This document shows, in pieces, positions 3,132 to 64,000 of a stretch of DNA of 64,000 nucleotides (positions are counted from its first letter, which is position 1; the number at the start of each line of letters is the position of its first letter). The stretch comes from Escherichia phage DT57C. The notes under the pieces were generated by a model. The model was not told where the DNA came from and searched no databases. It worked only from the letters and a program-made list of their open reading frames with translations. Made by a program: the position numbers and the translations under genes. The stretch is from sequence record NC_027356.1, one strand, 5' to 3'.

Positions 3132-3140
3132 GGGGGCACA

Positions 3141-3671: not shown

Positions 3672-4249
3672 GACATTAGTAAAAATTGATTTTGCTAATT
3701 TTTCTTAGTGAAGCTGACAAGGGATTTACGGCGAGAGGAATCGATGACCCGTAAATAGCTGCATAAGGTACGTTGCTAGAGCTTTACGAAAAAGTTTTTT
3801 CTTGTTTACAATCCGCGATACGGAACAGTTAGGCTGCCCCATTAAGGGTTGTTTTAACTGTTACGTGTTAGTTTTTAAACAAATAGTTAATAGAATACTT
3901 AGCGATCTACACCCCGTAGGAACCCTGGTAAGGCCTCGAAGCAACCTAGTGTGAGGTGGTTGTGAAGTGAGACGGGAAGAGTGAAAAACTCTGAGAAGTG
4001 ATGACGTAAGGTATACTGCATCTAGTATGAGCTAGTACATGAAGCATTAGGTGAGCAAATCTGGCTTAGCGGCCATCCTCAAGGATTTGTGCGGTATAGT
4101 GAAGCGGCAGTGTAGCGTGAAAGTGGAAGTTGCCACCCCACTTCAGTATTTGCGATTAATTTGTTGAGAAATTGACAGTAACAGTTGTTCTATTCTTTCT
4201 GAATAGTCCTAAAGAAAACTTATTTCATTTCCAACACAGGAGTATTGTT
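3672..4249 (+). other. long ORF-free leader; candidate structured RNA or origin-proximal region
   Basis: about 580 bp between a consensus promoter and the next CDS with no ORF of 60 aa or more in any frame; purine-rich GTGAAG-like repeats. Confidence 0.3.
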
Positions 4250-7039: not shown

Positions 7040-7256
7040 AAAATGGGAAACAAGGAAGTTTCCAGTAAAAGAACGTAAAGTTCCTGTTTACGATACTTCG
7101 GAAAAGCTATGTAGGGTGGTACCACCTAGATTAGCTGGCATCCCTAACATATCCGAGTGGTTACTTAAACAACGGAGGACTAGCGTATCCCTTCGCATAG
7201 GGTTTGAGTTAGATAAAGTATATGCTGAACTTTCTTCTTTGCTCAAAGAATCATAA
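7014..7256 (+). CDS. hypothetical protein (80 aa)
   Basis: ORF overlapping the 3' end of the preceding gene. Confidence 0.3.
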   Translation: MLEMTVKNKKWETRKFPVKERKVPVYDTSEKLCRVVPPRLAGIPNISEWLLKQRRTSVSLRIGFELDKVYAELSSLLKES

Positions 7257-7265
7257 AAAATTTAT

Positions 7266-7294
7266 TTGCTTTCAGGAAAATTTTTCTGTATAAT
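7266..7294 (+). promoter_or_regulatory. T5-type sigma70 early promoter
   Basis: TTGCTT, 17 bp, TATAAT, then ATAAATTTGAGAGAGGAG. Confidence 0.65.
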
Positions 7295-7325
7295 AGATTC
7301 ATAAATTTGAGAGAGGAGTTTAAAT

Positions 7326-8030
7326 ATGGCTGGTTCTCGCAGAAAGAAACATATCCATGAAATCCCGGATGAAGTCTTTAAAAAGGTTATAGAGCATCTG
7401 GAGAACGGTGGTACTAAGAAAGCAGCATGTGAAATGCTCGGCGTATCATCCAATCCGACTATGGAAAGGATGATAGAAGAGTGGCAAGATCGCCAAATTC
7501 AAGTTGCCGAGATGAAGAAAAAGAAACGTGGCACACTCATTGAAGGCATCGAGTTAGCTAACGTTATTGAACAGTATTTATCTGGTGATTCTTTTGAAGA
7601 GATTGCCGATCGTAATTACCGCTCTGTAGCAATGGTTAAATCTGTTCTGGAACGATATGGTGCTCTACTTCGTTTAAACGATATTGTAGACCCGTTGAAT
7701 CCACCAATTATTCCTGATGATGCTGTAGCAGAAGAATTTGAAGTAGGTGAGCTAGTTTGGGTTCCTGGATACCAGTGTATCGGTGAAATCAAAAAAGCAA
7801 TGGATAATCCTGTTGGTTGTTACCGTGTATGGCTTCTATCAGAAGGCAAACAACAGAACGTTCATTATATGAATTACGAGCTGGCTTCTGTTAAACATCT
7901 GGAAAAGCTAGGGGTTGACGTAAAATCTCTGGGGTATAAATGGTCCCGGGAAGAAGTTATCACACTGATTAACGAAGCTGTTAAGGCTGCCTTGAAACTT
8001 GATAAAGAAAAAGGAAAACGCCGTGAGTAA
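7326..8030 (+). CDS. hypothetical protein with N-terminal helix-turn-helix-like segment
   Basis: 234 aa; GTKKAACEMLGVSSNPTMERMI resembles an HTH. Confidence 0.55.
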   Translation: MAGSRRKKHIHEIPDEVFKKVIEHLENGGTKKAACEMLGVSSNPTMERMIEEWQDRQIQVAEMKKKKRGTLIEGIELANVIEQYLSGDSFEEIADRNYRSVAMVKSVLERYGALLRLNDIVDPLNPPIIPDDAVAEEFEVGELVWVPGYQCIGEIKKAMDNPVGCYRVWLLSEGKQQNVHYMNYELASVKHLEKLGVDVKSLGYKWSREEVITLINEAVKAALKLDKEKGKRRE

Positions 8031-8274
8031 ACTAACTGATTTGCTTAAAGATGGGGAAGTAAAAACACTATATCGTAGAAGCTGGGATAACGATAATAAC
8101 GGCTTAGTGTTACTAACTTTAGATGCTGACTCGGATGTAGTTACTCAACATACTTGGGTAGCCGGTAACTATCCATATAGTGAGATTGTTTCATTAACAG
8201 TATGCGAAGCTGTTGCAGACGATTGGGAGATTGCCAGCATTGATGATATGCTCGCTGTTGGCCTGGTGGAGTAA
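8023..8274 (+). CDS. hypothetical protein
   Basis: probable GTG start overlapping the upstream stop; RBS AAGGAAAA; track ORF opens at 7999. Confidence 0.4.
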   Translation: MSKLTDLLKDGEVKTLYRRSWDNDNNGLVLLTLDADSDVVTQHTWVAGNYPYSEIVSLTVCEAVADDWEIASIDDMLAVGLVE

Positions 8275-9519: not shown

Positions 9520-9735
9520 ATGAGAGGATCAATCATGGCAATGACAGTAACACTTCCCAAGATTCAAGCAAAACTTAATCTGCTTTCCACAGCACGCATT
9601 AATTATCAAGATAACATAGGCACAGTAAATCAAAAGGCGTACAAAGATGCGTTTCTGAAAGAATCTGCTGATTTGATGGATATGGTTACACAATATAATA
9701 AAGAACTCAAGATGGAAATCGCCGATGATGAATAA
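9520..9735 (+). CDS. hypothetical protein (71 aa)
   Basis: ORF overlapping the ligase A start. Confidence 0.4.
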   Translation: MRGSIMAMTVTLPKIQAKLNLLSTARINYQDNIGTVNQKAYKDAFLKESADLMDMVTQYNKELKMEIADDE

Positions 9736-10699
9736 TGTAAAAGGCTTTATTAAGCGTTGTCAAGAAGCATATTATCAAGGCATGTCTTTAATCTCTGATG
9801 AAGAATATGATCGCCTAGTAAAACGCTTCCCGTTAGAGGAAGAGATCGGGCCTAAGGGTGATATTCCACATCTGTACCGTATGTATTCTTTACAGAAAGT
9901 TTATTATAATCGTGGAGATAAACCCCCATTTAACCCATTAGGTCAAGTAGAAACTGATAAGTTAGATGGTTGTGCAATTTCCTTATTATATATTAATGGC
10001 GAATTTGTTCAAGCATTAACTCGTGGTAACGGTATTCTAGGTAATGATGTCACAAGCAACGTAAGATTGCTGAACATCCCTAAAAAGATTTCTCAAAAAG
10101 TACCTACTCAAATCACTGGTGAAGTTCTAATTACAAAAGAAGTAGAAAATAAACGTAACTTTGCCTCTGGTGCTATTAACCTCAAAGATAGTGATGATTT
10201 CGTACAGCGTATCGGGGAAGGTGGTTTAATCTTCGTTGCATACGGTATCCAGTGTTCTGCTGAATCTGTAGGTATTACAGAAGCGTATTTAAAAGATATG
10301 CTTTGGCTAGAGAATGAGAACTTCTTAACAGTTGTTAATGTACGTTCCTTCTTTAAATGGATTCCAACGGACGGTAAAGTTGTTCGTATTAATGATAACA
10401 ACAAATTCTTCCGTGAAGGCTGGACTAATAAATTTCCTCGCGGTGCATTTGCTATTAAAGAGGATGAAGAAGGTGAGACTACAACTCTTACTAAAGTTGA
10501 ATGGAATGTAGGGGCTTCTGGTAAAGTAACTCCAGTCGGTTATTTTGAACCAGTAATTATTGATGATGCTACAATTGTTAAAGCGACTCTTAATAACGTT
10601 GATTATATTAACTCTCTCGATCTAGAGATCGGTTGCCAGATTCGAGTGATTCGTGCTGGTGGTGTAATCCCGTGCATAGTAGAGCGAGTTTACGATTAA
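9725..10699 (+). CDS. NAD-dependent DNA ligase, subunit A (adenylation domain)
   Basis: 324 aa; KxDG adenylation motif (DKLDGCA) and OB-fold region; stops before the Zn/HhH/BRCT half. Confidence 0.85.
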   Translation: MMNNVKGFIKRCQEAYYQGMSLISDEEYDRLVKRFPLEEEIGPKGDIPHLYRMYSLQKVYYNRGDKPPFNPLGQVETDKLDGCAISLLYINGEFVQALTRGNGILGNDVTSNVRLLNIPKKISQKVPTQITGEVLITKEVENKRNFASGAINLKDSDDFVQRIGEGGLIFVAYGIQCSAESVGITEAYLKDMLWLENENFLTVVNVRSFFKWIPTDGKVVRINDNNKFFREGWTNKFPRGAFAIKEDEEGETTTLTKVEWNVGASGKVTPVGYFEPVIIDDATIVKATLNNVDYINSLDLEIGCQIRVIRAGGVIPCIVERVYD

Positions 10700-21637: not shown

Positions 21638-23456
21638 GACACTAAAATTTAGTAACGTTATGTCTTACGGTAAGGGCATCGTAATTCATTTCGATAAGAA
21701 TCCAGTTACTCAACTAATTGGCGGCAATGGACTAGGGAAATCCACCATCGCTACGGTTATAGAAGAGCTATTCTATAATAAAAATTCTCGAGGTATCAAG
21801 AAGGATGCATTGTTCTCTTGGAATGCCCCTAGGAAAGAATACGATATGCACGCTTATTTCTCGAAAGATGATGATGAGTATGAGCTGCATAAAGTTGTCA
21901 AGTCAACTGCTAAAGTAACGTTGATTAAGAATGGGGAAGATATTAGTGGACATACGGCAACCCAAACATACAAGATGATTGAAGAGATTATGGGTGGTGA
22001 TTTTCAAACATTCACCAAACTAATTTATCAATCAGTGGGTTCCAACCTAGATTTTCTAAAAGCAACGGATGCAACACGTAAGGCTTTTCTTGTTAACCTG
22101 TTTAACCAGGAACAATACAAAGAAATGTCGGAAACTATTAAGGCTGACCGCAAAGAAATAGCAAATACCTTAAATAATTTGCAGGGCCAAATGGCTGTAA
22201 TTACGAAAATCCTTAATGGAAAAAATAATCTAGGAACCTTGCAGGAACCTGTAGAAGTACCGGAGTTTGATGAAGAACCATTAGCACAAGAACTTACTGA
22301 ATCGAAAATTAAGGCGGCATTAGCCAAGTCACAAGAGGCTAATATTACTAAGTTGCGTAATTTGGACAAAGCTGTACAAGTTGCCGAACAATCTTTCGAA
22401 CCTTTCAAAAATTTGCCCGCGCCCACCGACCAAAATGAAGAGATCTCGAGTGTTACGCGTGACCTAACGATTGTGACCTCACGTGCGAGCGAAGTTAAGA
22501 AACGTTATCAGAAGTTCAAGCAAGAGGCTTCAAATACTGAATGCCCTACTTGCGGTACTCATCTGGATACAACTGCTGCTCAAAAAGCAATGGATATGGC
22601 TAGAACAGAATATGATCCTCTGTTCAAAGAGAAGCAATCTCTTGAAGCTAAGCTAGAACAGTTGAAGAAAGAACAACTTGAGTACGTTGCGTATACTAGA
22701 GCAAAGGATGCTTTGGATAAAGCAGTGGTAGCTAGAGACGAGTTCAAAAATTCAATGAGTGATGCTTCTTTTGAAGAACTCAATGTGCAAATCCTACAGG
22801 TGCAAATCCGACAATTAGAACAGGAAATCGCTGATGGCCGCTCTAAGGTTGCAATTGCCAAAGAGCATAATGCAAATGTCGAATTAGCCAATGCAAAATA
22901 TAAAGCAAAGCTAGAACAGATTGAGAAAGCTGAAGCAGAAATGTCTGAGATTACTTCCAAACTTGATGGAGTAGCCGAAGCTGTAGCTGATCTCGATATT
23001 CTAATTGCTGCATTGAAAAATCTGGTGGGATATAAACTAGAACATAGTGTGAAAGTATTTGAAGAACTAATTAATAAATACCTTTCCATTATGACTGGCG
23101 GTAAATTCGCACTTGGATTTGAACTTGATGAAACAAAATTACAAGTAGTAATCTTCAATGATGGAAACCGTACCAGTATGGAGAACTGCTCTACTGGTCA
23201 GCAAAGTCGAATTAATCTAGCAACCCTGCTAGCTATTCGGATGCTGTTAACCTCTATTAGTAAAGTTAATATTAATCTTCTATTCCTTGATGAAGTAATT
23301 AGCTTTATTGATACGAAAGGACTTGATACTCTCGTTGAACTATTAAATGAGGAAGAAAGTCTAAATTCTATCATTGTTTCTCACGGGCATACGCATCCAT
23401 TGGCTCATAAGATTACTGTCAAGAAAGATGCAGAAGGATTTTCCTACTTAGAATAA
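21618..23456 (+). CDS. SbcC/Rad50-like ATPase (D13-like)
   Basis: Walker A GGNGLGKST, long coiled coil, CPTCG zinc hook, signature STGQQSR, Walker B LLFLDE; ATG at 21618 (track ORF opens at 21537). Confidence 0.8.
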   Translation: MSKITIKTLKFSNVMSYGKGIVIHFDKNPVTQLIGGNGLGKSTIATVIEELFYNKNSRGIKKDALFSWNAPRKEYDMHAYFSKDDDEYELHKVVKSTAKVTLIKNGEDISGHTATQTYKMIEEIMGGDFQTFTKLIYQSVGSNLDFLKATDATRKAFLVNLFNQEQYKEMSETIKADRKEIANTLNNLQGQMAVITKILNGKNNLGTLQEPVEVPEFDEEPLAQELTESKIKAALAKSQEANITKLRNLDKAVQVAEQSFEPFKNLPAPTDQNEEISSVTRDLTIVTSRASEVKKRYQKFKQEASNTECPTCGTHLDTTAAQKAMDMARTEYDPLFKEKQSLEAKLEQLKKEQLEYVAYTRAKDALDKAVVARDEFKNSMSDASFEELNVQILQVQIRQLEQEIADGRSKVAIAKEHNANVELANAKYKAKLEQIEKAEAEMSEITSKLDGVAEAVADLDILIAALKNLVGYKLEHSVKVFEELINKYLSIMTGGKFALGFELDETKLQVVIFNDGNRTSMENCSTGQQSRINLATLLAIRMLLTSISKVNINLLFLDEVISFIDTKGLDTLVELLNEEESLNSIIVSHGHTHPLAHKITVKKDAEGFSYLE

Positions 23457-48941: not shown

Positions 48942-50155
48942 TCTTTATCTCCCTCGGTGGAACCTTGAGGTCTACCACCTTCTTGACCAGATACACCTGT
49001 TGCAGAACCAGCAACGTTAGCAGGAATACGAATCCTATTCATCTGCTCATCATCTAAAGGTTCAAGGTTCAGCTCTAAACGAGCTTCGTTACCAGTCATA
49101 ATACCATTATTAACCAATGAGGTTAAATGTTTAGCCTCAGCTTCTTTATCTGGTGTTAATGCAGCTACCTCCTTAGTATTAGGGGTAATCTTATAACCAA
49201 AAAAGAAAGTAAGAGAACTAGTCAGTTTGTTCAGCATAGGAATGATAGTCATATAGTAGAACAATTCGATGTTTGGTCGAATATTCGCATTATTACCACC
49301 ATCAATCAGTACTTGCGGAACACCAAAGGCTAGACAGATAGATTTATTAAATCCTGCGATGTCTTCCTTAAAGTCTAGATCTTTAAAAGAGGATATTTGG
49401 GAGTACGGTTTAGCTTTCATACCACCATCTAGAATCAGGACAGAAGACTGACCCGTACTAGGATTATAATCGAGTTGTAATTCTTCTTGTTTACGCTCAC
49501 GCAATTTCTTGTTCAGGATTTCATCCGTTTCAAGAATAAGACCAATCACGGTTCCGTTATCTAGGAACTTCTCTTTAAAGTTAAGCATTTTAGAACGCTT
49601 CTCAAGAGAGTCAATAACAGTAGCAACACGAGATTGTCCAGAAATTTGAGAATTTGTGCCACACACGTAACTGTTATCCTTTATAAAGATAATCTCATCT
49701 ACGCGATAGTTTATCTGATTATTAAATATAAATTTTTTGATAAACTTATTGGCATCTGCCTCGACCTGCATGAGAGCGGCCGGGACATGGTAAAGCGATG
49801 TGCCATCCCAATAGATGTATGCACAACCCTCAAAAAGTAGGTCAGTGACTACAAGTCTACGGAATGTGCTTATATCCATGAATGGATTAGGTCGTACATT
49901 TAAGAGAGTGTCTAGAGTCTTTGTTTTGACGCCATTAGCGTACGTAACAATATTATATTTATCTCCGACAGTATAAGAACACTCCGCCGCACTATCTATA
50001 ACCATATTGGCAGTTCGATTGAGAATCTCAATCTTGCTATAGGCTTGTCCAGTGGTAAAAGGCTTACGGTTAGTGCGATGACTAACTGGTTCCATGTCTC
50101 TTATAATACGTTGACCCGGATTTAGCTTTTCAGTAATCCAGCTTTTAAAACCCAT
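48938..50155 (-). CDS. portal protein (pb7-like)
   Basis: 405 aa; adjacent to protease and capsid genes. Confidence 0.75.
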   Translation of the reverse strand: MGFKSWITEKLNPGQRIIRDMEPVSHRTNRKPFTTGQAYSKIEILNRTANMVIDSAAECSYTVGDKYNIVTYANGVKTKTLDTLLNVRPNPFMDISTFRRLVVTDLLFEGCAYIYWDGTSLYHVPAALMQVEADANKFIKKFIFNNQINYRVDEIIFIKDNSYVCGTNSQISGQSRVATVIDSLEKRSKMLNFKEKFLDNGTVIGLILETDEILNKKLRERKQEELQLDYNPSTGQSSVLILDGGMKAKPYSQISSFKDLDFKEDIAGFNKSICLAFGVPQVLIDGGNNANIRPNIELFYYMTIIPMLNKLTSSLTFFFGYKITPNTKEVAALTPDKEAEAKHLTSLVNNGIMTGNEARLELNLEPLDDEQMNRIRIPANVAGSATGVSGQEGGRPQGSTEGDKE

Positions 50156-50607
50156 TATAAGAACCTTGCGAATCCTGATTTTGTTTCAGTCTTGACTTGT
50201 GTCTTTTCTTGAGGATTCTGTAATTTGTCTTTCTGCTTTTGAACCCATGCTTTCTGTTTATCAGCAGAAAATAATGGAGGTTCTTTCGTGTAAACCTTAT
50301 GTAATAGTTGGTGATGGTGCTGGCACAATGTTACCACGTCCCTAACTAACTCATGCTCATATTTCTTGTAGAATGCTTCCCTATTTGAAAGGACGATATT
50401 CTCATCAGTGAAATCCAGCTGGAGTTCTTTAGCAAATTTTTTTATTAGCTGAGATATAGTATGATAATGGTGAAGTTCTAGGTCTTCACTACTACCACAT
50501 ATAGCACAGCAACCATCCTTACTATACCTAGATTTTATACCATCCCTCATTATAGAGATGGCATCACGTTTGTACTTAGTATTAGTGGCCATAATCCCCC
50601 AATCCAA
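50155..50607 (-). CDS. HNH-like endonuclease
   Basis: CCAICGSSEDLELHHYH...N...CQHHHQLLH fits a zinc-bound HNH fold; located beside terminase. Confidence 0.5.
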   Translation of the reverse strand: MDWGIMATNTKYKRDAISIMRDGIKSRYSKDGCCAICGSSEDLELHHYHTISQLIKKFAKELQLDFTDENIVLSNREAFYKKYEHELVRDVVTLCQHHHQLLHKVYTKEPPLFSADKQKAWVQKQKDKLQNPQEKTQVKTETKSGFARFL

Positions 50608-51110: not shown

Positions 51111-52427
51111 TTATTTACCACGGGAAATAGAGTAAATTCCATAGCGGAGCGCATCACAAAGGTGAGAGTTAGCATCATGACGTGGTCTTTCACGTGATAA
51201 TTTCTCTTCGCCTTCTTGGAAATCCCACTTATAGTTCTGCAATGCATGAATTAAGGAGGAACATGAGGCATCCACAATAATTTTCCCTTGCTGGAATAAC
51301 GCTTGCAAACATGCTAGACCATCTAGGACAGATTTTTTAGCCGGAGCCGACGCGATTTCATGCTCATACGCTAAGTCCTGGCGGAACTGAGCTGCTGCAG
51401 AGTCAACAAAAATACGATCAACTTTATAACGATCTATACAGTGCTGAATATAAGCAGCATGCTGAGCTGTAGTTTTCTCCGCCTGCTGGTACTCTTCTAA
51501 CACATAGTAAGTATCCGTATCGTAATGATATTTAATAGTAAGAACTGCTGTAGGATCACGATAACCAACGTCAATACCAAGCAACGTTTCGAATGCTTCA
51601 TCATCTTTAAAGAAGTGGCGCATACCTTTGAGGTCTTTAACATGATCGATAGCATTGAAAGTATCAAATATCTGGCCTTCGAATACAGAGAAGTCAGCCT
51701 CGTATTCCTGACGGAAGTAGTTTTTACTAACTGTACGACGTGCTTCCTCAATGTCATGCAAGTCAGCACGTGGGTTATCACGATATGTACCATGAATGGA
51801 TACCCAGTTAGGCAACGTATCATCAAATCCGTAGGCGTAAAACTCTTTAAACCAGTTACCTCCACGAGGGGTGGAAATAAATAGAGCCTTAGAATTAGGT
51901 TTATCTAGAGTAGGACGCAGCTGAACCCTGAAGGCATCACCACCCACGTCGGAAATTGCCGCCTCGTCAAAGATGATAAAATCGTATGAACGTCCAACTG
52001 CGGAGTCAGCCTGAGCCGCGGAAGCTAGTTTAAATAGAGAACCATTAGCTAACTCAATCTCTTTATCTTTAGCGTTTTCACGTTCGGTTTGTAGGCCGTA
52101 CTTCTTAATAAGACCACGAATCTGAGACCATCCGATATTAGCCAGTGAATAGTTAGGGGCAACTACTAGCACCTTCACATTAGGTTCCAGCAACTTTAGG
52201 AACCCAAGTGTATATGCTATAAAGGACTTACCTACACGGCGTGATACACACGCCGTTACAAAACGATGTCTAGGGTCTTCTAGCGCATTGATAATAGCTA
52301 TTTGAGGGCCATTAGGTGTAATACCCTCTTGTGCTAGTATTCCGGAAACAGGTAGACGAAAGAAACGTTTATCTACCCCGAAATCAATAACATCTACTGT
52401 ATTAACATAGGGTCTTGATACTTCCAT
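51111..52427 (-). CDS. terminase large subunit
   Basis: 438 aa; Walker A-like VSRRVGKS; Walker B-like FIIFDE; C-terminal nuclease-like acidic residues. Confidence 0.85.
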   Translation of the reverse strand: MEVSRPYVNTVDVIDFGVDKRFFRLPVSGILAQEGITPNGPQIAIINALEDPRHRFVTACVSRRVGKSFIAYTLGFLKLLEPNVKVLVVAPNYSLANIGWSQIRGLIKKYGLQTERENAKDKEIELANGSLFKLASAAQADSAVGRSYDFIIFDEAAISDVGGDAFRVQLRPTLDKPNSKALFISTPRGGNWFKEFYAYGFDDTLPNWVSIHGTYRDNPRADLHDIEEARRTVSKNYFRQEYEADFSVFEGQIFDTFNAIDHVKDLKGMRHFFKDDEAFETLLGIDVGYRDPTAVLTIKYHYDTDTYYVLEEYQQAEKTTAQHAAYIQHCIDRYKVDRIFVDSAAAQFRQDLAYEHEIASAPAKKSVLDGLACLQALFQQGKIIVDASCSSLIHALQNYKWDFQEGEEKLSRERPRHDANSHLCDALRYGIYSISRGK

Positions 52428-52909
52428 TACTTCTTACCTCCAGTAGCTAGGGAAGTAATTAAGTCCATGTAGTTTTGGTCCCCAGCTCCAGCAATAATGT
52501 TATTCTGGATATTGGTCTGGTTAGCAGGAGCACGGACAGCAGCTTTAGCTTTTTCTAACTCTACCATCATCTTCATTTCTTCCATCTTCATCTTGTGTGC
52601 CTTCCAGAGAATATCCATAATATCCTGGTCAGAACCCATGCCAGTTTCTTCTAGCTCCTCTAGTTTACGTTTAATAACTTCGTCTAGAACACCAAACAAA
52701 CGATCCCTATTACGGAATCCACTCTCCATAAAAATATCGTTTAAGTAGTTCTTAACTTCACTACGATTCATAATATCTCGAAAAGCAATTTCAGACATTC
52801 CAAGACTACGTGCGGCAGAAGGCACATCGCTGCCGCACTGTAAATAAGCTTCAATCACATCCATCCCTTCAGGGGACATAAGATCTGGTACTAATACATC
52901 ATTTGCCAT
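52427..52909 (-). CDS. putative terminase small subunit
   Basis: 160 aa; N-terminal HTH-like segment; coupled to terminase large subunit. Confidence 0.45.
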
Positions 52910-55444: not shown

Positions 55445-55635
55445 TGGAAGTAGTAGCTACACTAATAGTAATACAAGTCTGGGCAACTTTCATTGTTTCT
55501 TATAACGCGTATGTTCGCCTAAAAACTCTAGAGGCTCAAGTAAAACAGCAACAAGTTACTCTAGAAAAGCTAGTACTACTGCAACGTTGTGATAGTACCC
55601 GCATTTTGCAAATTGAGAGGGAATTAGATGTTTAG
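55441..55635 (+). CDS. small membrane protein (64 aa)
   Basis: N-terminal hydrophobic helix followed by coiled-coil-like segment. Confidence 0.4.
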   Translation: MMEVVATLIVIQVWATFIVSYNAYVRLKTLEAQVKQQQVTLEKLVLLQRCDSTRILQIERELDV

Positions 55636-55873: not shown

Positions 55874-55985
55874 TTGGGAAATCTCGAAATTTCATAAGAT
55901 TACACATGGAGGTGTGCTCACCGCCGGAGGCGAAAATACTTAGTCTGCTAACCGCCACCCCCCGTTACTATTACTCTGCTAACTA

Positions 55986-56018
55986 TTTCACCTTGCAACC
56001 ATTTTAATTGCAAGGTGA
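55986..56018. terminator. bidirectional hairpin terminator between convergent operons
   Basis: 12-bp perfect stem TTCACCTTGCAA/TTGCAAGGTGAA. Confidence 0.6.
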
Positions 56019-56038
56019 AACAAATTCAACTGTAATTA

Positions 56039-56773
56039 TTACGCTACTTTTAATTTCTCAATATATTGTTGTGGGCTGCAACTATATTCTGCGCGCTCCT
56101 CCTCGGTCATACCTTCCCAACATAATTGCAAGCGGTCGGCTAGGAACTGATAATCATTATCATCTTCAAGAGATTCATCAATAAAGGTTTCGCCGATCAA
56201 TGTGACGCCTATTGATAGAATATCGTTAACGGCTTGCGCGTCCAGCGTTTTAAATCCATATGCCGCCGCCGCTGATAATACGCCTTTATGATCATCAATC
56301 ATCGTGAAATCAGCGTTCGGATATAGCTGTTTGAATAGCTCAAAATAATGGCTTTTATATATAGCGTCTTTACTGTGGTATATTTCGCTAACCTTATCAG
56401 CCGTAAAATATTTGTGAAGTGTATCGCGGGAAAATACGCGGATATTGCTATTCCCACGCCCTCGCAGACCTTGTTTGCGCAAATAATAATAATCCGACTT
56501 ACTCATCAGGCGAGCGGTGCAAATAATGTTTAACGTGTTGGCGTCATTCATGCATTGGCGCATATAGGTAACGAGCGGCAAAAGCGTATCCTGCATTATT
56601 AACTCATGTTTGCACGCTTCATTTTTATACTTATTTAAATCTAAATCGCCTTCAATATCAAAGCAAGGCGCTACACGGTGGGCGGAGTTAATGATCGTGC
56701 CGTCCAGATCCCAAATCATTACGCGGGAAATATGCGGGTAATTGCGGGAAATATTCTTTTTATCTTGATTCAT
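56039..56773 (-). CDS. dmp: 5'-deoxyribonucleotidase (HAD family, T5 Dmp-like)
   Basis: 244 aa; HAD motif I DLDGTI; size and position match T5 dmp (memory). Confidence 0.7.
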   Translation of the reverse strand: MNQDKKNISRNYPHISRVMIWDLDGTIINSAHRVAPCFDIEGDLDLNKYKNEACKHELIMQDTLLPLVTYMRQCMNDANTLNIICTARLMSKSDYYYLRKQGLRGRGNSNIRVFSRDTLHKYFTADKVSEIYHSKDAIYKSHYFELFKQLYPNADFTMIDDHKGVLSAAAAYGFKTLDAQAVNDILSIGVTLIGETFIDESLEDDNDYQFLADRLQLCWEGMTEEERAEYSCSPQQYIEKLKVA

Positions 56774-56847
56774 TTTGTTACGTTCTCCATTAAAGGGATT
56801 AAGTTAATTTAATCCAGCCCATACAGTGGGCTGGAGTATTTCAGTCA

Positions 56848-57249
56848 TTAAAATACCAGACCATAAGCCAAAGCATCAGCGATAACAGTAATATCCTCGC
56901 CAGATACACCGGAACGAATACCGGCGCATGTAAATACCTTCGCGCTCATTAACTGATCATCAAGACAAGCGGGGCAAGGCGCGACAACTGCGAAAGCTAA
57001 ACCAGCTTTTGCGGCGTCAATAATAGTCGTTTCTTGTTTCATCGTATCAATGTAAACGCCTTTCGCCTTGATGCGGCTAGATAGCTTGCCCGTGGTGTAG
57101 GCGAAAGTAGTGATCTGTAGCGCCTCATTAAATTCGATTAAGTCATCAACAACGTGCCCCGCCTCGACGTGATAGCGCTCACCGGTAGAATAAACTAGGA
57201 CGATTGCAGACTGCGCGCGATCGAATGGGATACGGTTGTAAGTAGTCAT
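56848..57249 (-). CDS. pre-early hypothetical protein (133 aa)
   Basis: ORF with the conserved pre-early leader/RBS motif. Confidence 0.45.
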   Translation of the reverse strand: MTTYNRIPFDRAQSAIVLVYSTGERYHVEAGHVVDDLIEFNEALQITTFAYTTGKLSSRIKAKGVYIDTMKQETTIIDAAKAGLAFAVVAPCPACLDDQLMSAKVFTCAGIRSGVSGEDITVIADALAYGLVF

Positions 57250-57318
57250 GCGTATAACTCCAATTAATTTAATAAACTTTTATGGCGGCGGTATATTTCG
57301 CCCGCCCGCCTGATTTAT

Positions 57319-58983
57319 TTACGCGAAAAATTTGCCGTTTTTAAAGTCGATTAACGTGCGCTGCCCGTTTGCATATGTAATTACATGCGTTTGCGTCCAG
57401 CTTGATGCGCCGACGTTGTAGCCCATATCGAGGCTGCCCGATACGCCAGCAGTATATACGCCGCCGTAAATGCTGGCGGTATGGGTGTGCCCCGTGTTTA
57501 ATTTGCCCAACTTTTTAAATTGCTTCGGATTGCCGCGGCTCCCGTTGATGCCGTTGTGACCGTGTACGCCGCACTCAATGCCTGCAATCTTGAATGATTG
57601 ATCAGTCGTTAGGAATATGGCGTTAAACTCACAGCCTGCAACCTTGCGCAGCGCATAATCCAGCACGTTGAAAGTATCGTCATTTTCTGCAATAGCTCCA
57701 TAGATCGCGGCGTTGAGGCGGTGATATAGCTCTGCGTTTGCTGGATCGTCTTTAATGTTAGCGTTGCGATCATCCAGCCAACGGGATAACGCCAGATCGT
57801 GGTTTGACTCAACAATGATTGTTTGCGAGAAATCGCGCTCCATTGATTCCAATACACGCCCCGTGTCGATAAGATCATCTAAAACCTTATCACGTCCGGC
57901 GGCGTACTGTTTTGCTAGGAATACGCCAGATGCGCGATTGTGGTGGTTGCGTGATGTAAAGTCATGCACATCATGCACGAACTGATATTTAGGTTTAAGA
58001 ATATCAAGCAAACTATTTTCGCCCGCCCATGACGCTTCAGCACACGCCTTATCTAATTTTTCAGCGTGCACGTCGCCATACTGTAAACCTAAAACATGCC
58101 CCGATGTTTCATAACATCCGGCGGGAGTGGCGCAAATATTCAAATCATAAAAAACGCCGGTTTCATCCATCGTCTCAAGCTGGCGAACAAAAAATGCCCC
58201 GTCCTCGTCAAACTCGACAATCAGCGCGCCAAAGTTATGTAACGCTTCGGCCTTTTGCCCTGCTTTCTGCTGAATGTAGTTTTTTAGCGTTGCCGCTCCC
58301 GTTGAGTACATACGGCGCACTACTTCACCTTTGAGCGCTGGAACGCTTTCTGCGGTGATTTTAGCTGCTCCAATTGCCAAACCTTCAAGATCAAGCGCTG
58401 TTGCAGTCTCAGCGAATCCAGAAAGCGGGTAGTCTGCCGTTGGCAAAACATTAATCTCAGCCATGAAAGCAAAGCGGCGACTATTTAAAAACACGTTTTT
58501 ATTACAGATATATTTATCAAAAGCGGAATCATATTTGATCCCGTCCGCACCTTCTCCATTCTGGAATCCTTTTTTGTTATAAATGAACTTGCTAACCAGC
58601 AAATCAGCGCCGATAAATTGGGCGTAATGTTCAAGTGAGGCTAAAAAGTTTTTATGCGGGAACGTGTTGTTCTGGATTGATGTTATAATGAAGCGTTTGC
58701 CCTGCTTTACTTCCCACTGTTCAACCGTGCTAGAAATAATTCCCGCCGCCTCTGGGCGCTCGTCGTTTTTAACGGCTTTTGATGCTTTCGCCTCTTTTGG
58801 TTTCGCTGGTTTGTTTGCTTCCAGCCAATCACAAATTGCGGTCGAATGTTTTGCCGTATCGTACACCGCTTTTGATATATCGTCGCAGACTTCCAATCTA
58901 GTAGCGCGCAGACGTTTACCGTAAAAATTAAAATCAGCGGCCAGCTTCAGGATAACGGTTTGTTTTTCTGCGGAAATAACCAT
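57319..58983 (-). CDS. A1: A1-like pre-early protein (metallophosphatase-fold nuclease-like)
   Basis: 554 aa (T5 A1 is about 556 aa, memory); metallophosphoesterase-like motifs GDVHAE, GHNG, GHTH. Confidence 0.65.
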   Translation of the reverse strand: MVISAEKQTVILKLAADFNFYGKRLRATRLEVCDDISKAVYDTAKHSTAICDWLEANKPAKPKEAKASKAVKNDERPEAAGIISSTVEQWEVKQGKRFIITSIQNNTFPHKNFLASLEHYAQFIGADLLVSKFIYNKKGFQNGEGADGIKYDSAFDKYICNKNVFLNSRRFAFMAEINVLPTADYPLSGFAETATALDLEGLAIGAAKITAESVPALKGEVVRRMYSTGAATLKNYIQQKAGQKAEALHNFGALIVEFDEDGAFFVRQLETMDETGVFYDLNICATPAGCYETSGHVLGLQYGDVHAEKLDKACAEASWAGENSLLDILKPKYQFVHDVHDFTSRNHHNRASGVFLAKQYAAGRDKVLDDLIDTGRVLESMERDFSQTIIVESNHDLALSRWLDDRNANIKDDPANAELYHRLNAAIYGAIAENDDTFNVLDYALRKVAGCEFNAIFLTTDQSFKIAGIECGVHGHNGINGSRGNPKQFKKLGKLNTGHTHTASIYGGVYTAGVSGSLDMGYNVGASSWTQTHVITYANGQRTLIDFKNGKFFA

Positions 58984-59080
58984 AATATTAAAACTCCATT
59001 AAAGGGATTAAGAACGTTTGTTATTGGCAAATATTGCCAAATATAACGCTGCTTATTAACAGCGTTATAATTTGCAATAC

Positions 59081-59326
59081 TTAACTGATCGGCATCAGGC
59101 TAGAACTAACACCACAAACAACGGCGGTAATAAAACAAAATAAGCCTAAACGCTTTGCTAACTTTGATTTGCGTTTAAAGTAATATGAATCCAGATCATT
59201 CTGGAAATAAGCGAACAATAATGAGGCCGCTACAATAAATAAACCTAGAATTAACGATTCAGTGGGATAAAAGATCATTTTAATAATTCCAGTTAAAGGG
59301 AAATTATAGTGGGGAATATTCCCCAC
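59081..59326 (-). CDS. small membrane protein (81 aa, two TM helices)
   Basis: two hydrophobic segments. Confidence 0.45.
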   Translation of the reverse strand: MGNIPHYNFPLTGIIKMIFYPTESLILGLFIVAASLLFAYFQNDLDSYYFKRKSKLAKRLGLFCFITAVVCGVSSSLMPIS

Positions 59327-59335
59327 TAATTAAAT

Positions 59336-59752
59336 TTATTCACCTGCGGATTGTTTTACTTCATCTGCTACGCCTAGTAATTGCGCTACGGCGTCCAGCG
59401 TTTCTAATTTTGCGCTTTCCAGACTTGCCAGATCGTCGGCGTCTTTGATAATGCCGGAATCAATGGCATGTTTAGCAATAACGCGCACATAATGCGCCTT
59501 GCGGATTGAACTACCGCCGCCAACTTTGCGCGGTTTATCGCTTTTCTGATACGCTTTTGCGCTGGTCAATTTTGAGCGAACAGACACAGGGGAAGTAGCG
59601 CCCACTGTTTTGGCGATCTCTTTCAGGCCGTCGCTGTTTGCGAACTCTAAACCGTTTTCATTGATTAATTGCTGATACATAGAAACGGCTTTTTGGGTAT
59701 TTTCTTCATTCCATGCAAATTTTGCGGATTTTTCGGTTTTAACGTTAGTCAT
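59336..59752 (-). CDS. pre-early protein with KL(T/R)K-G module; possible A2-like DNA-binding protein
   Basis: 138 aa; module LKEIAKTVGATSPVSVRSKLTSAKAYQK related to repeats of 11674..12441 and 8378..8788. Confidence 0.45.
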   Translation of the reverse strand: MTNVKTEKSAKFAWNEENTQKAVSMYQQLINENGLEFANSDGLKEIAKTVGATSPVSVRSKLTSAKAYQKSDKPRKVGGGSSIRKAHYVRVIAKHAIDSGIIKDADDLASLESAKLETLDAVAQLLGVADEVKQSAGE

Positions 59753-59809
59753 GGTATAAACTCCAATTAATTTAATTTAAGGGATAAGATTAACATAATG
59801 TTAATCGTT

Positions 59810-59839
59810 ATATTTCCCCAATAGTTCGGGGAAATATAA
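59810..59839. promoter_or_regulatory. 11-bp-stem hairpin preceded by 15-bp palindrome TTAACATAATGTTAA
   Basis: TATATTTCCCC/GGGGAAATATA inverted repeat between two pre-early genes; palindrome at 59791-59805. Confidence 0.4.
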
Positions 59840-59852
59840 AGTTAACACTAAA

Positions 59853-60104
59853 CTATGCTACAGCTTCCAATTTTTCGTTACGTTGAACAACTTTTACAAC
59901 GTCGCCAGATTTAACGCGAACACTAAAAACGGTTTTTCCGTTGTTGCTACGTTCCGTTTCTGCATATACTGCATCAATTACATCGAACGGCATGAGCGCC
60001 GCGCCTTTGATGCGTTCGGCCTTTCCGGTTGCCTCGTCTGTTTTAGTAACGAAAGGGATGAAAACGGATTGACCAATTTTTGGCGCGGTGATAGCGTTTT
60101 TCAT
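59853..60104 (-). CDS. pre-early hypothetical protein (83 aa)
   Basis: ORF with conserved leader/RBS; promoter-like TTGACG, 17 bp, TAAAAT upstream on the minus strand near 60305-60335. Confidence 0.45.
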   Translation of the reverse strand: MKNAITAPKIGQSVFIPFVTKTDEATGKAERIKGAALMPFDVIDAVYAETERSNNGKTVFSVRVKSGDVVKVVQRNEKLEAVA

Positions 60105-60341
60105 GGTATAAACTCCAGTTATTTGATGGATTGTTCCGCATTACCTGCTAAAAAATAATAACAGGTAATAAGAAAAAATCCGCTCACCGTTAAAATCAAT
60201 TTAAGGAACTCCACACAGGCCGCTATATCCCGTTAGGGGGCGGGGCACATTATGGCAAGTACCGGCCGTCAAATTTTACCAAGTTATCGCTCTTGTTGAA
60301 TCGGGTACATTTTAAAGCCTATCGGCTAGGGCGTCAAATTA

Positions 60342-60509
60342 TTTTTCGTTTTCTTTTAAATTAGAATTCTCCCAACTGAATTGCATCTCGCAAAATATTT
60401 TCCCATCTTTATGATGGTAAGCGATCTCGCTCCCGTGGTTAGCACAGAAAGCGATCACTGCCTCAGCTTGTTCTACCGTGATATTGTTGGCCGTTTCTTT
60501 GATTTTCAT
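60342..60509 (-). CDS. small hypothetical protein (55 aa)
   Basis: translated codon by codon; strong RBS AAGGAGA 6 nt upstream of ATG; below the ORF-track cutoff. Confidence 0.4.
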
Positions 60510-61135
60510 ATCGTCGTCTCCTTATAAGGTTAATAAGTTTGCCGCCGATGGGCTTTAAAATGCACCTGATTTTTAAAGAGCGCGGCGGTAAACTTTCCGC
60601 CGTGTAGTTCGTCATTGCCGCCCTACGAGATAAATAATAGGGAATACCCAAAAAAGGTGCAACCTTAATTTTGTAAAGAAATGTAAAGAAAGCAAATACC
60701 CGCACCGCGTCCGGCGATCGCCCAAGTTTAAAGGAAACAGGCGCGCGGATACCATAAAACCGAGCTGATTGGCAAGTAATTTTTTCATTTTTATTTGCCT
60801 TGCCCTACTTGACAAAACTTAAAAAGCTCGTGGTGACGATAAACGGGCTATCCCTTTATGATGGGATACCTGAAAAATTTACCGCGTTGTAGGACGTTTT
60901 AGGCCGCTTATCTTCGATTTAACAAATATTTAACAAAAGCAAAATTGAAAAATAGTTTGAGAAGGTATTGACTTTTTAAAATCAAGACTAAACGAGTTAT
61001 TTTAAAAAATTAATTAATTGACTTTTATTTGTTGTTGTGTAGTAGAAAGATAGCAGACTAATAATTGCTAGAATGATAATCATGCTGGTGATTGTAACAG
61101 ACTGAACTATTAGCAGACTACTGATCCCGGAAAAT

Positions 61136-61175
61136 CTCATTAGCCAACTAACTATCTCATTAGCCAACTAACTAT
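61136..61175. repeat. 20-bp direct repeat, 2 copies
   Basis: CTCATTAGCCAACTAACTAT twice in tandem. Confidence 0.8.
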
Positions 61176-61185
61176 TTCATAAGTT

Positions 61186-61365
61186 ATAATAACTATAAAA
61201 ATAATCACCGTTAAAATAATCACTATAAAAATAATCACCATTAAAATAATAACTATAGAAATAATCACCATTATAATAATCACCATTAAAATAATCACTA
61301 TAAAAATAATCACCATTAAAATAATCACTATAAAAATAATCACCATTATTATAATCACTATAAGA
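61186..61365. repeat. 15-bp tandem iteron-like array, 12 units
   Basis: alternating ATAATCACCATTAAA and ATAATCACTATAAAA units. Confidence 0.9.
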
Positions 61366-61401
61366 AACTATCGGCTTAAGTGAGAACCACTATCATTTAA
61401 G

Positions 61402-61510
61402 TTATCCACAACGTTATCCACAGCACAAAATGATTTGACACGATAGGCGGCGATATAAAGATTTATCCACAGACTTATCCACAGGTTATCCTACTGTATA
61501 TTTATCCAGG
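61402..61510 (+). promoter_or_regulatory. DnaA-box cluster A (4 perfect TTATCCACA plus 2 degenerate)
   Basis: TTATCCACA at 61402, 61414, 61463, 61475; variants TTATCCTAC and TTATCCAGG. Confidence 0.7.
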
Positions 61511-61880
61511 GTAAAAAGATAGTGTTTACAACTGCAATCAATTTTGAGCGGCCTAAAACGCTTTCTAACGAGCTGATCGCTGTAGGGTAATATTAAAGTA
61601 AAGCCTTTACCCGTCGGCCTAGAGGCTTCGCCGTGTTTTGCTCTTTACTGCACCGCTGCGCGGTTAGCATAAAACTAGGTGTTAGGCAAGAAAAATAAAA
61701 AGTAAAGTAAACGTTGCCCCTAGAAAGAAAATAATTTTACCGGTAACATCGAAAGCGGGTAATAATTAACCTAATGTAAAGTTTTGTAAGGCCCGCCATA
61801 ATCAGCGGCCTTTTTTGTTATACTGCCCTTACACCGTTTAAGGACGGTTAAAAATTTCCCGAAAAATTTGGAGGCTTAAA

Positions 61881-62060
61881 ATGGTTATTTTTCGATCTAT
61901 TCTGGCGGGTATCTTGGGCGCTATTTTAACTCTATTTGCTACCGCTTACGGTATTCAAGATTCTTATTGCGGTTTAGTAAATACTAAACCTATGGTTATT
62001 ATTGGCGCGGGTATCGCTGTTTTTTCTTATTTGCTGGGCTGCATGAATAAAGGAGAATAA
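61881..62060 (+). CDS. small membrane protein (59 aa)
   Basis: RBS GGAGG; two hydrophobic segments; first ORF of a coupled small-gene cassette. Confidence 0.4.
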   Translation: MVIFRSILAGILGAILTLFATAYGIQDSYCGLVNTKPMVIIGAGIAVFSYLLGCMNKGE

Positions 62061-62062
62061 AA

Positions 62063-62275
62063 ATGATCCGCAACGTTTCTCTTGCTCGTTCCAAAGGTTT
62101 TAAGCTGGTGGATGTAAACACGTTCGAGCGTCCTGGTTGTAAAATCGAATATATAGCGCGGAATAAAAACGCTTTCCGCGTTACAGAAAAGAGATTCGAT
62201 AAACGCGGCAACGTGATAGCTGAAACGGTTAAATATTTTGCCACCTTTTACGCGGCCTTTCGTGGGGTATTATGA
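62063..62275 (+). CDS. hypothetical protein (70 aa)
   Basis: track ORF; RBS AAAGGAGAA upstream. Confidence 0.4.
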   Translation: MIRNVSLARSKGFKLVDVNTFERPGCKIEYIARNKNAFRVTEKRFDKRGNVIAETVKYFATFYAAFRGVL

Positions 62276-62397
62276 AGAGCGTTGTTATTGTTATCCTTGC
62301 AATGGTTGGCGGTTTTACCACCACCTTGTTTAGAAATGATCCTCTTTTGCTAGGGATCTTTATGCTTTTATCTGGTTATCTGATCGGGAGGTTATAA
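62272..62397 (+). CDS. small membrane protein (about 41 aa)
   Basis: ATGA overlap with the upstream ORF; hydrophobic; my manual reading of this stretch disagreed by 1 nt with the ORF track, so coordinates are approximate. Confidence 0.25.
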   Translation: MKSVVIVILAMVGGFTTTLFRNDPLLLGIFMLLSGYLIGRL

Positions 62398-62398
62398 A

Positions 62399-62743
62399 AT
62401 GGTGATTTATGAAGGTGATCGCCTTGTTGCTGATTGCCGTCCGGCATTGTTAGCAAACTACTTAAACCAGCTTTCGCCAGTATATAAAGGCGTTATAAAT
62501 ATTTATGAAGGCGGGGCGCATTATAAGATTAATGCGGTCGTTGCCCGTGAACTAGCGTTTCAATTTTTAACCTTTTCATCTTGCAATATTCAGGTCATGG
62601 GTGAGGCGTTAATTGCAGAAAATGAAGATGATTTTATTAATATCTTTCGCAAGATATGCACCGAGCGCCTGATAATGAAAGGGGCATATATTCAATCCAC
62701 TGCGGATAGTATTGAAACGGCTTTTCGAAAGGTGGCACAATGA
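62399..62743 (+). CDS. hypothetical protein (114 aa)
   Basis: track ORF; coupled start; no recognisable motif. Confidence 0.45.
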   Translation: MVIYEGDRLVADCRPALLANYLNQLSPVYKGVINIYEGGAHYKINAVVARELAFQFLTFSSCNIQVMGEALIAENEDDFINIFRKICTERLIMKGAYIQSTADSIETAFRKVAQ

Positions 62744-62881
62744 AGCTATATATTTTCGCGGGTAATGTTGAGGCTGCAAATGATTCCGCTGGTGGCGATA
62801 GCGTTCGCCATTATTGGCAAAATTATATTTACTAGGCGTAATGATCACGGGGCACAACTATCAGGGAGTGCCCCTGATTCT

Positions 62882-62904
62882 CAAATGAGAATGATTCTCA
62901 TTTG
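62882..62904. promoter_or_regulatory. perfect 23-bp palindrome, operator-like
   Basis: CAAATGAGAAT-G-ATTCTCATTTG; same AATGAGAAT core as the 23-bp tandem array. Confidence 0.6.
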
Positions 62905-63079
62905 ACCGCGCCCGCGATGGTTAGCACACTAATGATTAGGGTGTTACGTGTCGCCTTGTGTGATCGTTAGCGGGCTAACTAATTTTCAAGCCTCCTCCAG
63001 ATTTGCCCTTGTTTTAGTATCCCCATCAAAATAAAACGCGTTAGAAAGCGATTCAGGGCGTTTTAGGCCTATATTAGAA

Positions 63080-63208
63080 TTATCCACTGCGTAGGAATAC
63101 TGTATATTTATACAGTAGAATAACCTGGGGATAAGTCGGTGGATAACGCTTCAAAATGGCTAGAATTTTGTCAAGGCAAATCGTGCTGTTGATAAGTCTG
63201 TGGATAAC
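63080..63208 (-). promoter_or_regulatory. DnaA-box cluster B, inverted relative to cluster A
   Basis: TTATCCACT at 63080 (+); minus-strand TTATCCACC (63138-63146) and TTATCCACA (63199-63207); 17-mer TTATCCACAGACTTATC shared in inverted orientation with 61463-61479; 8-bp-arm inverted repeat at 63099-63116. Confidence 0.65.
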
Positions 63209-63230
63209 TTAAATAACAGTGTTTCTCACT

Positions 63231-63502
63231 TCCGTTTTTAAATGCGAATCATTATCATTTGCATTCCACTTCTTAAATGAGAATCATTTCACTTCTTGAA
63301 TAGTTCTCATTCCCTTTCTTAAATGAGAATCATTTCACTTCTTGAATAGTTCTCATTTCACTTCTTGAATAGTTCTCATTCCACTTCTTAAATGAGAATC
63401 ATTCCACTTCTTAAATGAGAATCATTCCACCTCTTAAATGAGAATGATTATCATTCGCATTCCACTTCTTAAATGCGAATGATAATCATTCTCATTCGCA
63501 TT
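63231..63502. repeat. 23-bp tandem array (8 units) with palindromic flanks
   Basis: units CCACTTCTTAAATGAGAATCATT and TCACTTCTTGAATAGTTCTCATT in order A-B-A-B-B-A-A-A at 63266-63449, flanked by AATGCGAAT...GCATT palindromic elements. Confidence 0.9.
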
Positions 63503-63510
63503 CCGGCGAG

Positions 63511-63526
63511 CAGGGCAATTGCCCTG
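63511..63526. repeat. 16-bp perfect palindrome
   Basis: CAGGGCAATTGCCCTG. Confidence 0.8.
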
Positions 63527-63530
63527 CGCT

Positions 63531-63755
63531 TATGTGCAAATCCGACAATTGCTCCAAGGGTTACGCGAGGGCATGTATGTGCAAATCCGACCCATTTTTT
63601 GGTAGTGTGCAAATCCGACCCCAAAAATTTATAAATTCGTGAGAGTGACAAATCTGTCTCCCAAAAACTCCAGCAATCACGAACTGCGTTCGAATCCTGT
63701 GGGGTATGTGCAAATCCGACACGGTTTTTCTAGGATTAAGATGTGCGAATCCGAT
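63531..63755 (+). repeat. dispersed direct repeats of a 13-16-bp motif (4 perfect plus 1 variant)
   Basis: (T)ATGTGCAAATCCGAC at 63534, 63579, 63607, 63708; variant GTGCGAATCCGAT at 63743; each followed by a short T- or A-run. Confidence 0.8.
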
Positions 63756-64000
63756 GAAATTTTTGTGACTTCGATGAGAGGGTGTGTGATTGTATAGGTT
63801 TGAGGAGAAGATGAGAGAGCGAGAAAAATTTTGGGGCTAGAAGTGTATGGGCGCAGGATTGGTGCGGAGCACCTGATTTGCGGGGGTTTTGGGGGATAGT
63901 GGAGATAATTTGGGGAAATTTGAGATAGGTGCAGAAAAAGTAAAATTTTATTAGCTAAAGGGGGCAATATAGCTTGACAATTGAAAATTCTTGTGGCTCT

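Follow-up and report, generated by a model that had tools for sequence, protein, structure and literature searches.

Near the right end of the window, by which I mean the whole 64,000-nucleotide stretch of Escherichia phage DT57C DNA analysed here (NC_027356.1), a 1.6-kb gap with convergent gene blocks on either side holds five direct copies of a short motif. Four are exact copies of TGTGCAAATCCGAC at 63533, 63578, 63606 and 63707, and the fifth is a variant, TGTGCGAATCCGAT, with two mismatches at 63742; all five lie on the + strand. Taken as 15-mers, copies 1 (63532..63546), 2 (63577..63591, followed by CCATTTTTT) and 4 (63706..63720) read ATGTGCAAATCCGAC exactly, copy 3 (63605..63619, followed by CCCAAAAATTT) reads GTGTGCAAATCCGAC, which has one mismatch to the 15-mer and is exact for the 14-mer, and copy 5 (63741..63755) reads ATGTGCGAATCCGAT, with two mismatches. 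When up to three mismatches are allowed, the 15-mer has eight matches in the window against 1.51 expected, a number that none of 100 shuffles reaches; two of the eight form a tandem pair within a gene (22783-22812).

A preliminary description, made from the letters of the window, had reported five copies (four perfect 13/14-mers and one variant) in a single orientation, and this holds at a level above chance. Its spacing of about 20-90 bp was right in being irregular, the measured start-to-start distances being 45, 28, 101 and 35 bp. A T/A run was said to follow each copy; I find an A/T run of at least five within 10 nt downstream of four of the five (copy 1 has only AATT) and T-enrichment in relatives, so that the feature is real but weak. 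The T-loop-like string GTTCGAATCC between copies (63688-63697, + strand) is, as the description had already judged, not part of a tRNA: ARAGORN finds no tRNA gene in the homologous stretch of Escherichia phage DT571/2, which matches the terminal repeat of the window at 99.975 %.

The last 1.2 kb of the window is 99.8 % identical to DT571/2, a Tequintavirus, and matches 406 T5-like phage records. Comparison with T5 allows the five motifs to be identified as the right-terminal-repeat copies of 'direct repeat D' (DRD), annotated in that phage since 2005. In the T5 record (GenBank AY587007), which gives DRD as repeats of 13-15 bp, copies 1-6 lie at 9672-9895, copies 7-9 at 10225-10409 just past the end of the terminal repeat, and copies 11-12 within the exo2/D13 gene, and the 'major single-stranded nick 1, 7.9 %' directly precedes copy 1. 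The window shares with T5 the identical core, the same site to the right of the 7.9 % nick, the same order of neighbours and a second group of copies past the repeat end, which in DT571/2 stands at 8170, 8205 and 8338, outside the window. That order runs from DnaA-box inverted repeats through direct repeat C units and the nick to DRD, with CCCTGCGC-TT-ATGTGC at 63522-63537. The only difference is that the window phage has five copies within the repeat and T5 has six: copies 1, 4 and 5 of the window correspond to T5 copies 1, 5 and 6, and the homologue of T5 copy 4 (the copy at +113) is absent from the window. Davison lists DRD in Repeat Region 3, the injection-stop (iss) region (bioRxiv 10.1101/866236), and the region that bears DRD is thought to house the injection stop signal. 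A full-text literature search for the motif string returned no match, and the literature consulted assigns no function to DRD.

The terminal repeat and its right end

The right terminal repeat occupies 55916..64000 (+ strand, 8085 bp) and is 99.975 % identical to positions 1-8085 of DT571/2; other offsets between the window and the DT571/2 record differ by about 1 kb. Its right end (63991..64000, + strand, ...TTGTGGCTCT) closes on the last base of the window, so that 245-470 bp separate the five copies from the physical right end of the genome, and the left-repeat copies stand at this same distance from the junction with unique DNA. The annotated repeat end falls at the homologous position in T5 (AY587007 10139), phiR2-01, Sw2 and MM-2, and at least eight IMG/VR contigs stop 476-478 bp past the nick motif, which is the repeat-end position.

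Several further features gather around this end. It falls within a highly conserved block made up of AAAATTCTTGTGGCTCT and, beyond the end, AAAAACTCAGGCAATCATGGGCCTTCGGCCC (locus L001 of DT571/2, 8069-8130), with a hairpin just outside the repeat, and a candidate right-end cleavage point within the block reads TGTGGCTCT^AAAAA. The sequence that starts right after the repeat end (CTCTAAAAACTCAGGCAATCA) is repeated by an internal copy, CCCAAAAACTCCAGCAATCA, at 63660..63679 on the + strand. The string CYAAAAACTYNRG recurs there, among the DRD copies, with a further occurrence 400 bp short of the repeat's left boundary (55519-55532), giving two matches in the window against 0.06 expected. Past the repeat end, AAATAACCGCCCTCCC occurs twice (L001 8259-8291) and is conserved in the phages IME260 and KEY, and CTAGAAA-type strings are interleaved with the outer DRD copies (L001 8190-8420). 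In the Salmonella phage Seafire (L007 1550, record 9592) the PhageTerm-predicted repeat end falls exactly on the nick motif. The homologous end in other phages is about 470 bp further on, and the nick was probably mistaken for the terminus. The annotated ends of chee158 and Kenya-K36 likewise disagree with the homologous repeat-end position.

The nick site and the injection-stop elements

Copy 1 lies between the two proposed halves of a major nick site. The homologue of the T5 7.9 %/99.5 % major nick site is CCCTGCGC at 63522..63529 on the - strand; the T5 annotation places the nick on the - strand, directly 3' of GCGC in + strand reading, which gives 5'-R^GCGCAGGG on the - strand. The published major-nick consensus, R^GCGCRGG, is said to need 'additional sequences'. 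A candidate second half of the site, GGTTACGCG, stands at 63559..63567 on the + strand, its TTAC beginning 31 nt after GCGC. All four unique homologues of T5 major nicks have CCYTGCGC (or CCCGCGC) and then TTACR 30-31 nt past GCGC, usually as RTTACGYG; this bipartite pattern is found in the window at 63522-63567 and 22416-22460, at position 7607 of L001, and in L057 (DT571/2 19900 and 29179). An other-strand CCCTGCGC at 234-241 of the window has no TTACR partner. The TTACR half may be the missing 'additional sequences' of the consensus, and CCGCGC-N32-TTACG at 62906-62950 of the window is a possible minor nick site.

To the left of the nick, injection-stop elements extend over 63098..63500 on the + strand, with LexA-like, DnaA-like and Fur-like boxes adjacent to one another. 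The first is a palindrome at 63098-63117, TACTGTATATTTATACAGTA, which agrees with the LexA-box consensus TACTGTATATATATACAGTA at 19 of 20 positions. It is the sole such site in the window, corresponds to 'palindrome D' of T5 and is conserved in IME260 and KEY; LexA is unmentioned in Davison's preprint (bioRxiv 10.1101/866236). Pairs of DnaA boxes follow at 63127-63147 and 63187-63209. Tandem units with Fur-box-like cores, the 'direct repeat C' of T5 together with its palindromes, then occupy 63230-63500, the best of them at 63440-63458 (- strand) and 63475-63493 (+ strand). A tandem-unit core, GCGAATGATAATCATTCTC, matches the Fur box GATAATGATAATCATTATC at 16 of 19 positions and occurs also at 56143-56167; there are four Fur-box-like matches in the window against 0.1 expected.

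Anatomy and specificity of the motif

A matrix was built from 175 distinct copies, relatives included, and used to scan the whole genome, rebuilt as DT571/2 positions 1-43362 plus the window. The DRD consensus is TGTGCRAATCCGAY, 14 bp long, asymmetric and without dyad symmetry. Its near-invariant positions read TGTGC-R-AATCCGA-Y, the C at position 5 being present in all 175 copies and the R position being A in 131 and G in 43. The flanks are low in information except for a purine or T just 5', an A just 3' and T-enrichment 5-8 nt downstream, where 137 of the 175 distinct copies have T at the peak position. Judged on sequence conservation, the DRD core is demonstrably under strong purifying selection.

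In the rebuilt genome 16 sites score more than 22 bits, every one of them on the + strand; the next best site scores 18.3 bits, and shuffles give up to 18.8. Each terminal repeat accounts for five of the 16, the DNA immediately to the right of the left repeat for three, a T5.019-like gene for one and D13 for two; the scan finds no DRD site at the left boundary of the repeat. A similar density throughout the genome or absence from close relatives would, according to the preliminary description, have refuted the motif. Neither is the case: beyond the 16 sites everything is at shuffle level, and each close relative examined carries the motif in the corresponding region.

The three intragenic sites deserve separate mention. 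The tandem DRD-like pair in D13/sbcC (22783..22812, + strand, 22.5 and 23.2 bits) corresponds to T5 DRD copies 11 and 12, encodes NVQILQVQIRQ, and lies in frame within the D13/SbcC coiled coil. It shares 17 identical nucleotides (GTGCAAATCCGACAATT) with copy 1 and its flank. It is not an insertion, the Sugarlandvirus homologue being equally long there without the pair; did it arise by gene conversion? As a universal part of the system the pair was rejected, being absent from Sugarlandvirus D13. The remaining site is a single + strand DRD at L001 10392-10405 (DT571/2, outside the window), inside a minus-strand T5.019-like gene and 2.4-3.3 kb right of the nick. There the island GGAACATTGTGCAWWTCCGAY is kept in 16 diverse T5-like loci whose flanking codons have strongly diverged.

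Conservation and layout across T5-like phages

In about 45 distinct T5-like loci the layout is stereotyped. Counted from the nick motif, copies lie at +10, +56, +82, +113, +184/194 and +219, the repeat ends at +478, and outer copies follow at +562, +597 and, sometimes or often, +733; no reverse-strand DRD occurs within -3 to +6 kb of these loci. There are accordingly two arrays. Array A has three to seven copies inside the terminal repeat (MM-2 has only three there) and in most lineages begins 4 nt past the major nick site; array B has one to six copies in the unique DNA just past the repeat. Copy number varies between phages and the sequence does not.

In four divergent lineages the right boundary of the terminal repeat has one array on each side, and three lineages that nucleotide searches with this region did not list have kept the motif. 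The Sugarlandvirus IME260 has five copies before the repeat end and six after it. Of the eight in Erwinia phage KEY, five precede the conserved end motif and three follow it. Pectobacterium phage My1, which belongs to another subfamily, has six before and three after its annotated repeat end and lacks an adjoining CCTGCGC nick motif. In IMG/VR, motif pairs occur only on contigs of 96-122 kb, the range of T5-like genomes. When the 1.9-kb non-coding region of DT571/2 is compared with those of IME260 and KEY, the 11-mers in common lie, with a few isolated exceptions, in discrete elements: the LexA-box-like palindrome, the DnaA-box pair, the tandem-unit cores, the nick motif, every DRD copy, the repeat-end block, the GGCCTTCGGCC hairpin and the AAATAACCGCCCTCCC pair. 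The 14-bp core is thus near-invariant although the surrounding non-coding DNA has diverged past ordinary alignment.

DRD is absent from two T5-like clades, represented by Proteus phage 1 and by the phage of locus L063. In the L063 clade the pre-early region is compact, without DRD, tandem Fur-like units or a nick motif of the CCCTGCGC type, and an inverted DnaA-box / LexA-like module is all that separates A2 from the early genes (L063 1346-2895). Its small terminase candidate is 55 % identical, and the same sequence is present in a public Salmonella assembly. This clade offers a natural comparison for the roles of the missing elements.

Candidate readers

If DRD is a binding site, what reads it? 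Two phage proteins were considered. The small terminase candidate, TerS (52427-52909, - strand; PHROG 3802), is sciB in the T5 record AY587007. Its AlphaFold model (pLDDT 60, which is low) has an N-terminal three-helix unit with a helix-turn-helix, followed by long helices, and its best fold matches include, weakly, the SF6 small-terminase DNA-binding domain; none reaches E <= 0.001. The second protein, A2 (PHROG 1725), is annotated 'DNA binding protein'. For TerS and A2 alike, sequence searches gave no solved relative and no Pfam match.

Neither protein follows DRD across phages. The TerS proteins of T5-like phages, IME260 and My1-like phages have a common E-x-x-x-R pattern in the putative recognition helix, but KEY, which has DRD, carries the helix SQEDFVAIYNK, which resembles PQETVMSIYNR of the DRD-less L063 clade rather than that of T5. 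On this helix the proposed covariation failed, and the recognition helix shows no covariation with the presence of DRD, in what is a weak test. The basic motif of A2, SVRSKL...PRKVGGGSSIRKAH, persists in the DRD-less Proteus phage 1 and for the most part in Vibrio phage Dax, a genome with unannotated repeat boundaries that was left out of the DRD scan; being conserved regardless of DRD, it makes covariation an uninformative and likewise weak test. From these weak tests neither TerS nor A2 is singled out as the DRD reader.

A small protein, sciA (50155-50592, - strand), lies between the portal and large-terminase genes, is annotated as a nicking endonuclease and has a weak match to an HNH-endonuclease PHROG. 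These annotations link site-specific nicking to the packaging genes.

A possible role at the right end of the repeat

The preliminary description had suggested a recognition site for a phage-encoded protein. A site for a protein would fit what is found, namely a near-invariant, asymmetric core whose sequence stays constant while copy number varies. Among the readings of DRD considered here, I place first, tentatively, an array of recognition sites for the machinery that cuts the terminal repeat at its right end or handles that end. An injection stop or restart role is nearly as likely, and a host-factor site, an accessory to nicking, transcription signals and a lack of function follow at progressively lower levels. 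Stated more broadly, the arrays may possibly be the cis signal that sets the right boundary of the T5 repeat, or else the point at which second-step transfer restarts, with a reader not yet linked to either.

Under right-end handling, each DRD copy would bind one molecule of a sequence-specific DNA-binding protein. Because the repeats are direct and irregularly spaced, a dimeric repressor seems a less fitting reader than a monomer or a ring-shaped oligomer. The arrays would then mark or organise the DNA on either side of the site where the genome end leaves replicated concatemers. In favour of such a role are the identity with T5 DRD copies 1-9, the specificity of the 16 sites, the stereotyped layout, the bracket in four lineages and the lack of a site at the left boundary. 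The position beside the major nick, the contigs that stop at the repeat end, the survival of every DRD copy among the elements common to distant phages and the weak resemblance of TerS to the SF6 domain count on the same side. As expected of a terminase site, the motif adjoins a sequence-specific genome-end cut, the arrays bracketing the repeat end in all four lineages.

There are precedents for this kind of arrangement. Repeated short elements flank the cut in the hexamers of P1 pac, the pacL-pacC-pacR of SPP1/SF6 and the R sites of lambda cosB, and the SRL/SRR repeats of T7 adjoin its terminal repeat. DRD is like these systems in having several short asymmetric motifs on both sides of a cut, together with A/T tracts, in non-coding DNA, but differs from them in its larger scale (about 750 bp), in the common orientation of all copies and in showing no covariation with TerS. 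Under the usual 'last in, first out' rule, since injection begins with the left end, this end should be the last to be packaged, and the right boundary would be where packaging starts. One paper on T5, however, states the opposite packaging direction, and I therefore hold the claim to a right-end cut.

Several observations tell against right-end handling, among them the failed covariation of TerS with DRD and the low confidence of the TerS model. The arrays stand well away from the cut and at no fixed distance, 84-246 bp to one side of it and about 137-351 bp to the other. Two clades with the same terminase family have no DRD. Conserved intragenic copies, in two genes, have no obvious role in packaging. 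Finally, array A is equally well sited for a role in two-step injection.

Alternative explanations

It is possible, if somewhat less probable, that the arrays are bound where first-step DNA gives way to second-step DNA, once the first 8 % of the genome is inside the cell, either by a pre-early phage protein (A2 together with A1) or by one from the host, and that this binding holds the DNA or lets its transfer restart. Array A does start at the nick/shear position that defines first-step DNA (T5 9672, against a calculated shear point of 9618), and it is contiguous with the conserved injection-stop elements. A2, moreover, is annotated as DNA-binding (PHROG 1725), and in the L063 clade DRD is missing along with other elements of repeat region 3. 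In Davison's model A1/A2 need a specific target on the right-hand side of the stop signal, and the DRD repeats are given no explanation. The specificity of A2 nevertheless does not track DRD, its basic motif being kept in the DRD-less Proteus phage 1. Array B, too, lies outside the terminal repeat, and were DRD concerned with injection, the bracketing of the repeat end would be a coincidence kept in four lineages. Papers from 2026 still call the mechanism of the stop and of second-step transfer poorly understood.

A conserved site for a host protein, for example a weak DnaA box, is an unlikely alternative. The reverse complement of the DRD core, ATTTGCACA, matches TTWTNCACA at eight of nine positions (the variant copy, ATTCGCACA, at seven of nine), and it has the orientation of the genuine TGTGGATAA boxes about 330-400 bp upstream. 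The neighbouring elements also resemble host-factor sites, the LexA box agreeing at 19/20, the Fur-box cores at 16/19 and the DnaA boxes with their consensus, and Davison proposed DnaA boxes as the functional core of the T5 injection-stop signal. A slowly evolving host reader would explain why the core is invariant while phage proteins have drifted to 53-72 % identity, and the DRD-bearing phages examined infect Escherichia, Salmonella, Klebsiella, Yersinia, Erwinia and Pectobacterium. The pattern of conservation is nevertheless wrong for a DnaA box, which was rejected despite the 8/9 match. The free N of the box is the invariant C of DRD (175/175), the position opposite its fixed T4 varies between A and G (131/43), and DRD extends five strongly conserved bases further, this CCGAC half, outside any DnaA box, being equally conserved at 1.6-2.4 bits per position. 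The match was also found post hoc, after many consensus sequences had been tried, at an estimated chance of about 1 % per consensus. That the TerS sequence of the DRD-less L063 clade also occurs in a public Salmonella assembly weighs further against a host reader. A non-systematic comparison with the consensuses of CRP, IHF, Fis, MarA/SoxS, the LacI/GalR type, TyrR and OmpR-type direct repeats gave no convincing match.

The presence of DnaA boxes also brings replication-origin iterons to mind, which are likewise multiple direct repeats in non-coding DNA. DRD differs from them in its irregular spacing (21-101 bp within an array) and in having no adjacent initiator gene, and T5 origins are reported near the centre of the genome. 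Iterons of a plasmid origin were considered by way of the DnaA boxes and dropped, no plasmid match being found.

The position of copy 1, 4 nt from the nick in T5-like phages, IME260 and KEY, makes it tempting to see DRD as an accessory element of the SciA/SciB site-specific nicking system, all the more so as the TerS-like gene is sciB in T5, the portal and terminase genes have the nicking endonuclease gene as their neighbour, and about 370 bp separate the D13 pair from the nick annotated at 64.7 %. I consider this very improbable and rejected a nick-site element on the evidence of the other nicks and of My1. The other three major nick sites have no DRD in the 3.5-5-kb stretches examined, and My1 has the arrays without an adjoining CCTGCGC. 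Of the 8-11 copies, just one has a nick motif beside it, the GCGC core of the nick site is absent from DRD, and viable nick-less mutants exist in the literature.

It is just as hard to regard the repeats as functionless remnants of local duplication: copy number does differ between phages (3-7 and 1-6), but the core is near-invariant while the spacers diverge, the orientation is uniform in every lineage, and the motif survives where the surrounding DNA has no other common 11-mers beyond recognisable elements.

That DRD represents promoters, terminators or RNA elements is barely credible. The preliminary description had offered transcription start or termination signals as an alternative, and T-rich runs do follow most copies, but no stem precedes these runs, a consensus scan finds no promoter- or terminator-like site in the array and counts at or below shuffles in the region, single-strand folding is no better than in shuffles (z = -0.25), and the array lies between convergent gene blocks, so the suggestion finds no support. 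All Rfam matches are far below the gathering score and ARAGORN finds no tRNA genes; a tRNA remnant, considered because the core agrees at 11 of 14 positions with the T-arm GGTTCGAATCCTAC, was rejected for want of any tRNA, Rfam family or structure.

Significance

The two-step injection of T5 and its long exact terminal repeats are classic unsolved problems, and the non-coding region that bears DRD is the only candidate cis-acting region for both. The DRD repeats themselves are already known, and nothing here is categorically new. What the present analysis adds is their genome-wide specificity and strict polarity. It further shows that the arrays flank the repeat end across four lineages and that some clades do without DRD, and it gives negative outcomes for DnaA, TerS and A2. 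DRD emerges as the most sharply defined motif of the region and is found almost nowhere else in the genome. If it is indeed a boundary or restart signal, it would provide a mutable handle on how a repeat of 8-13 kb is measured and cut, and on the control of two-step injection.
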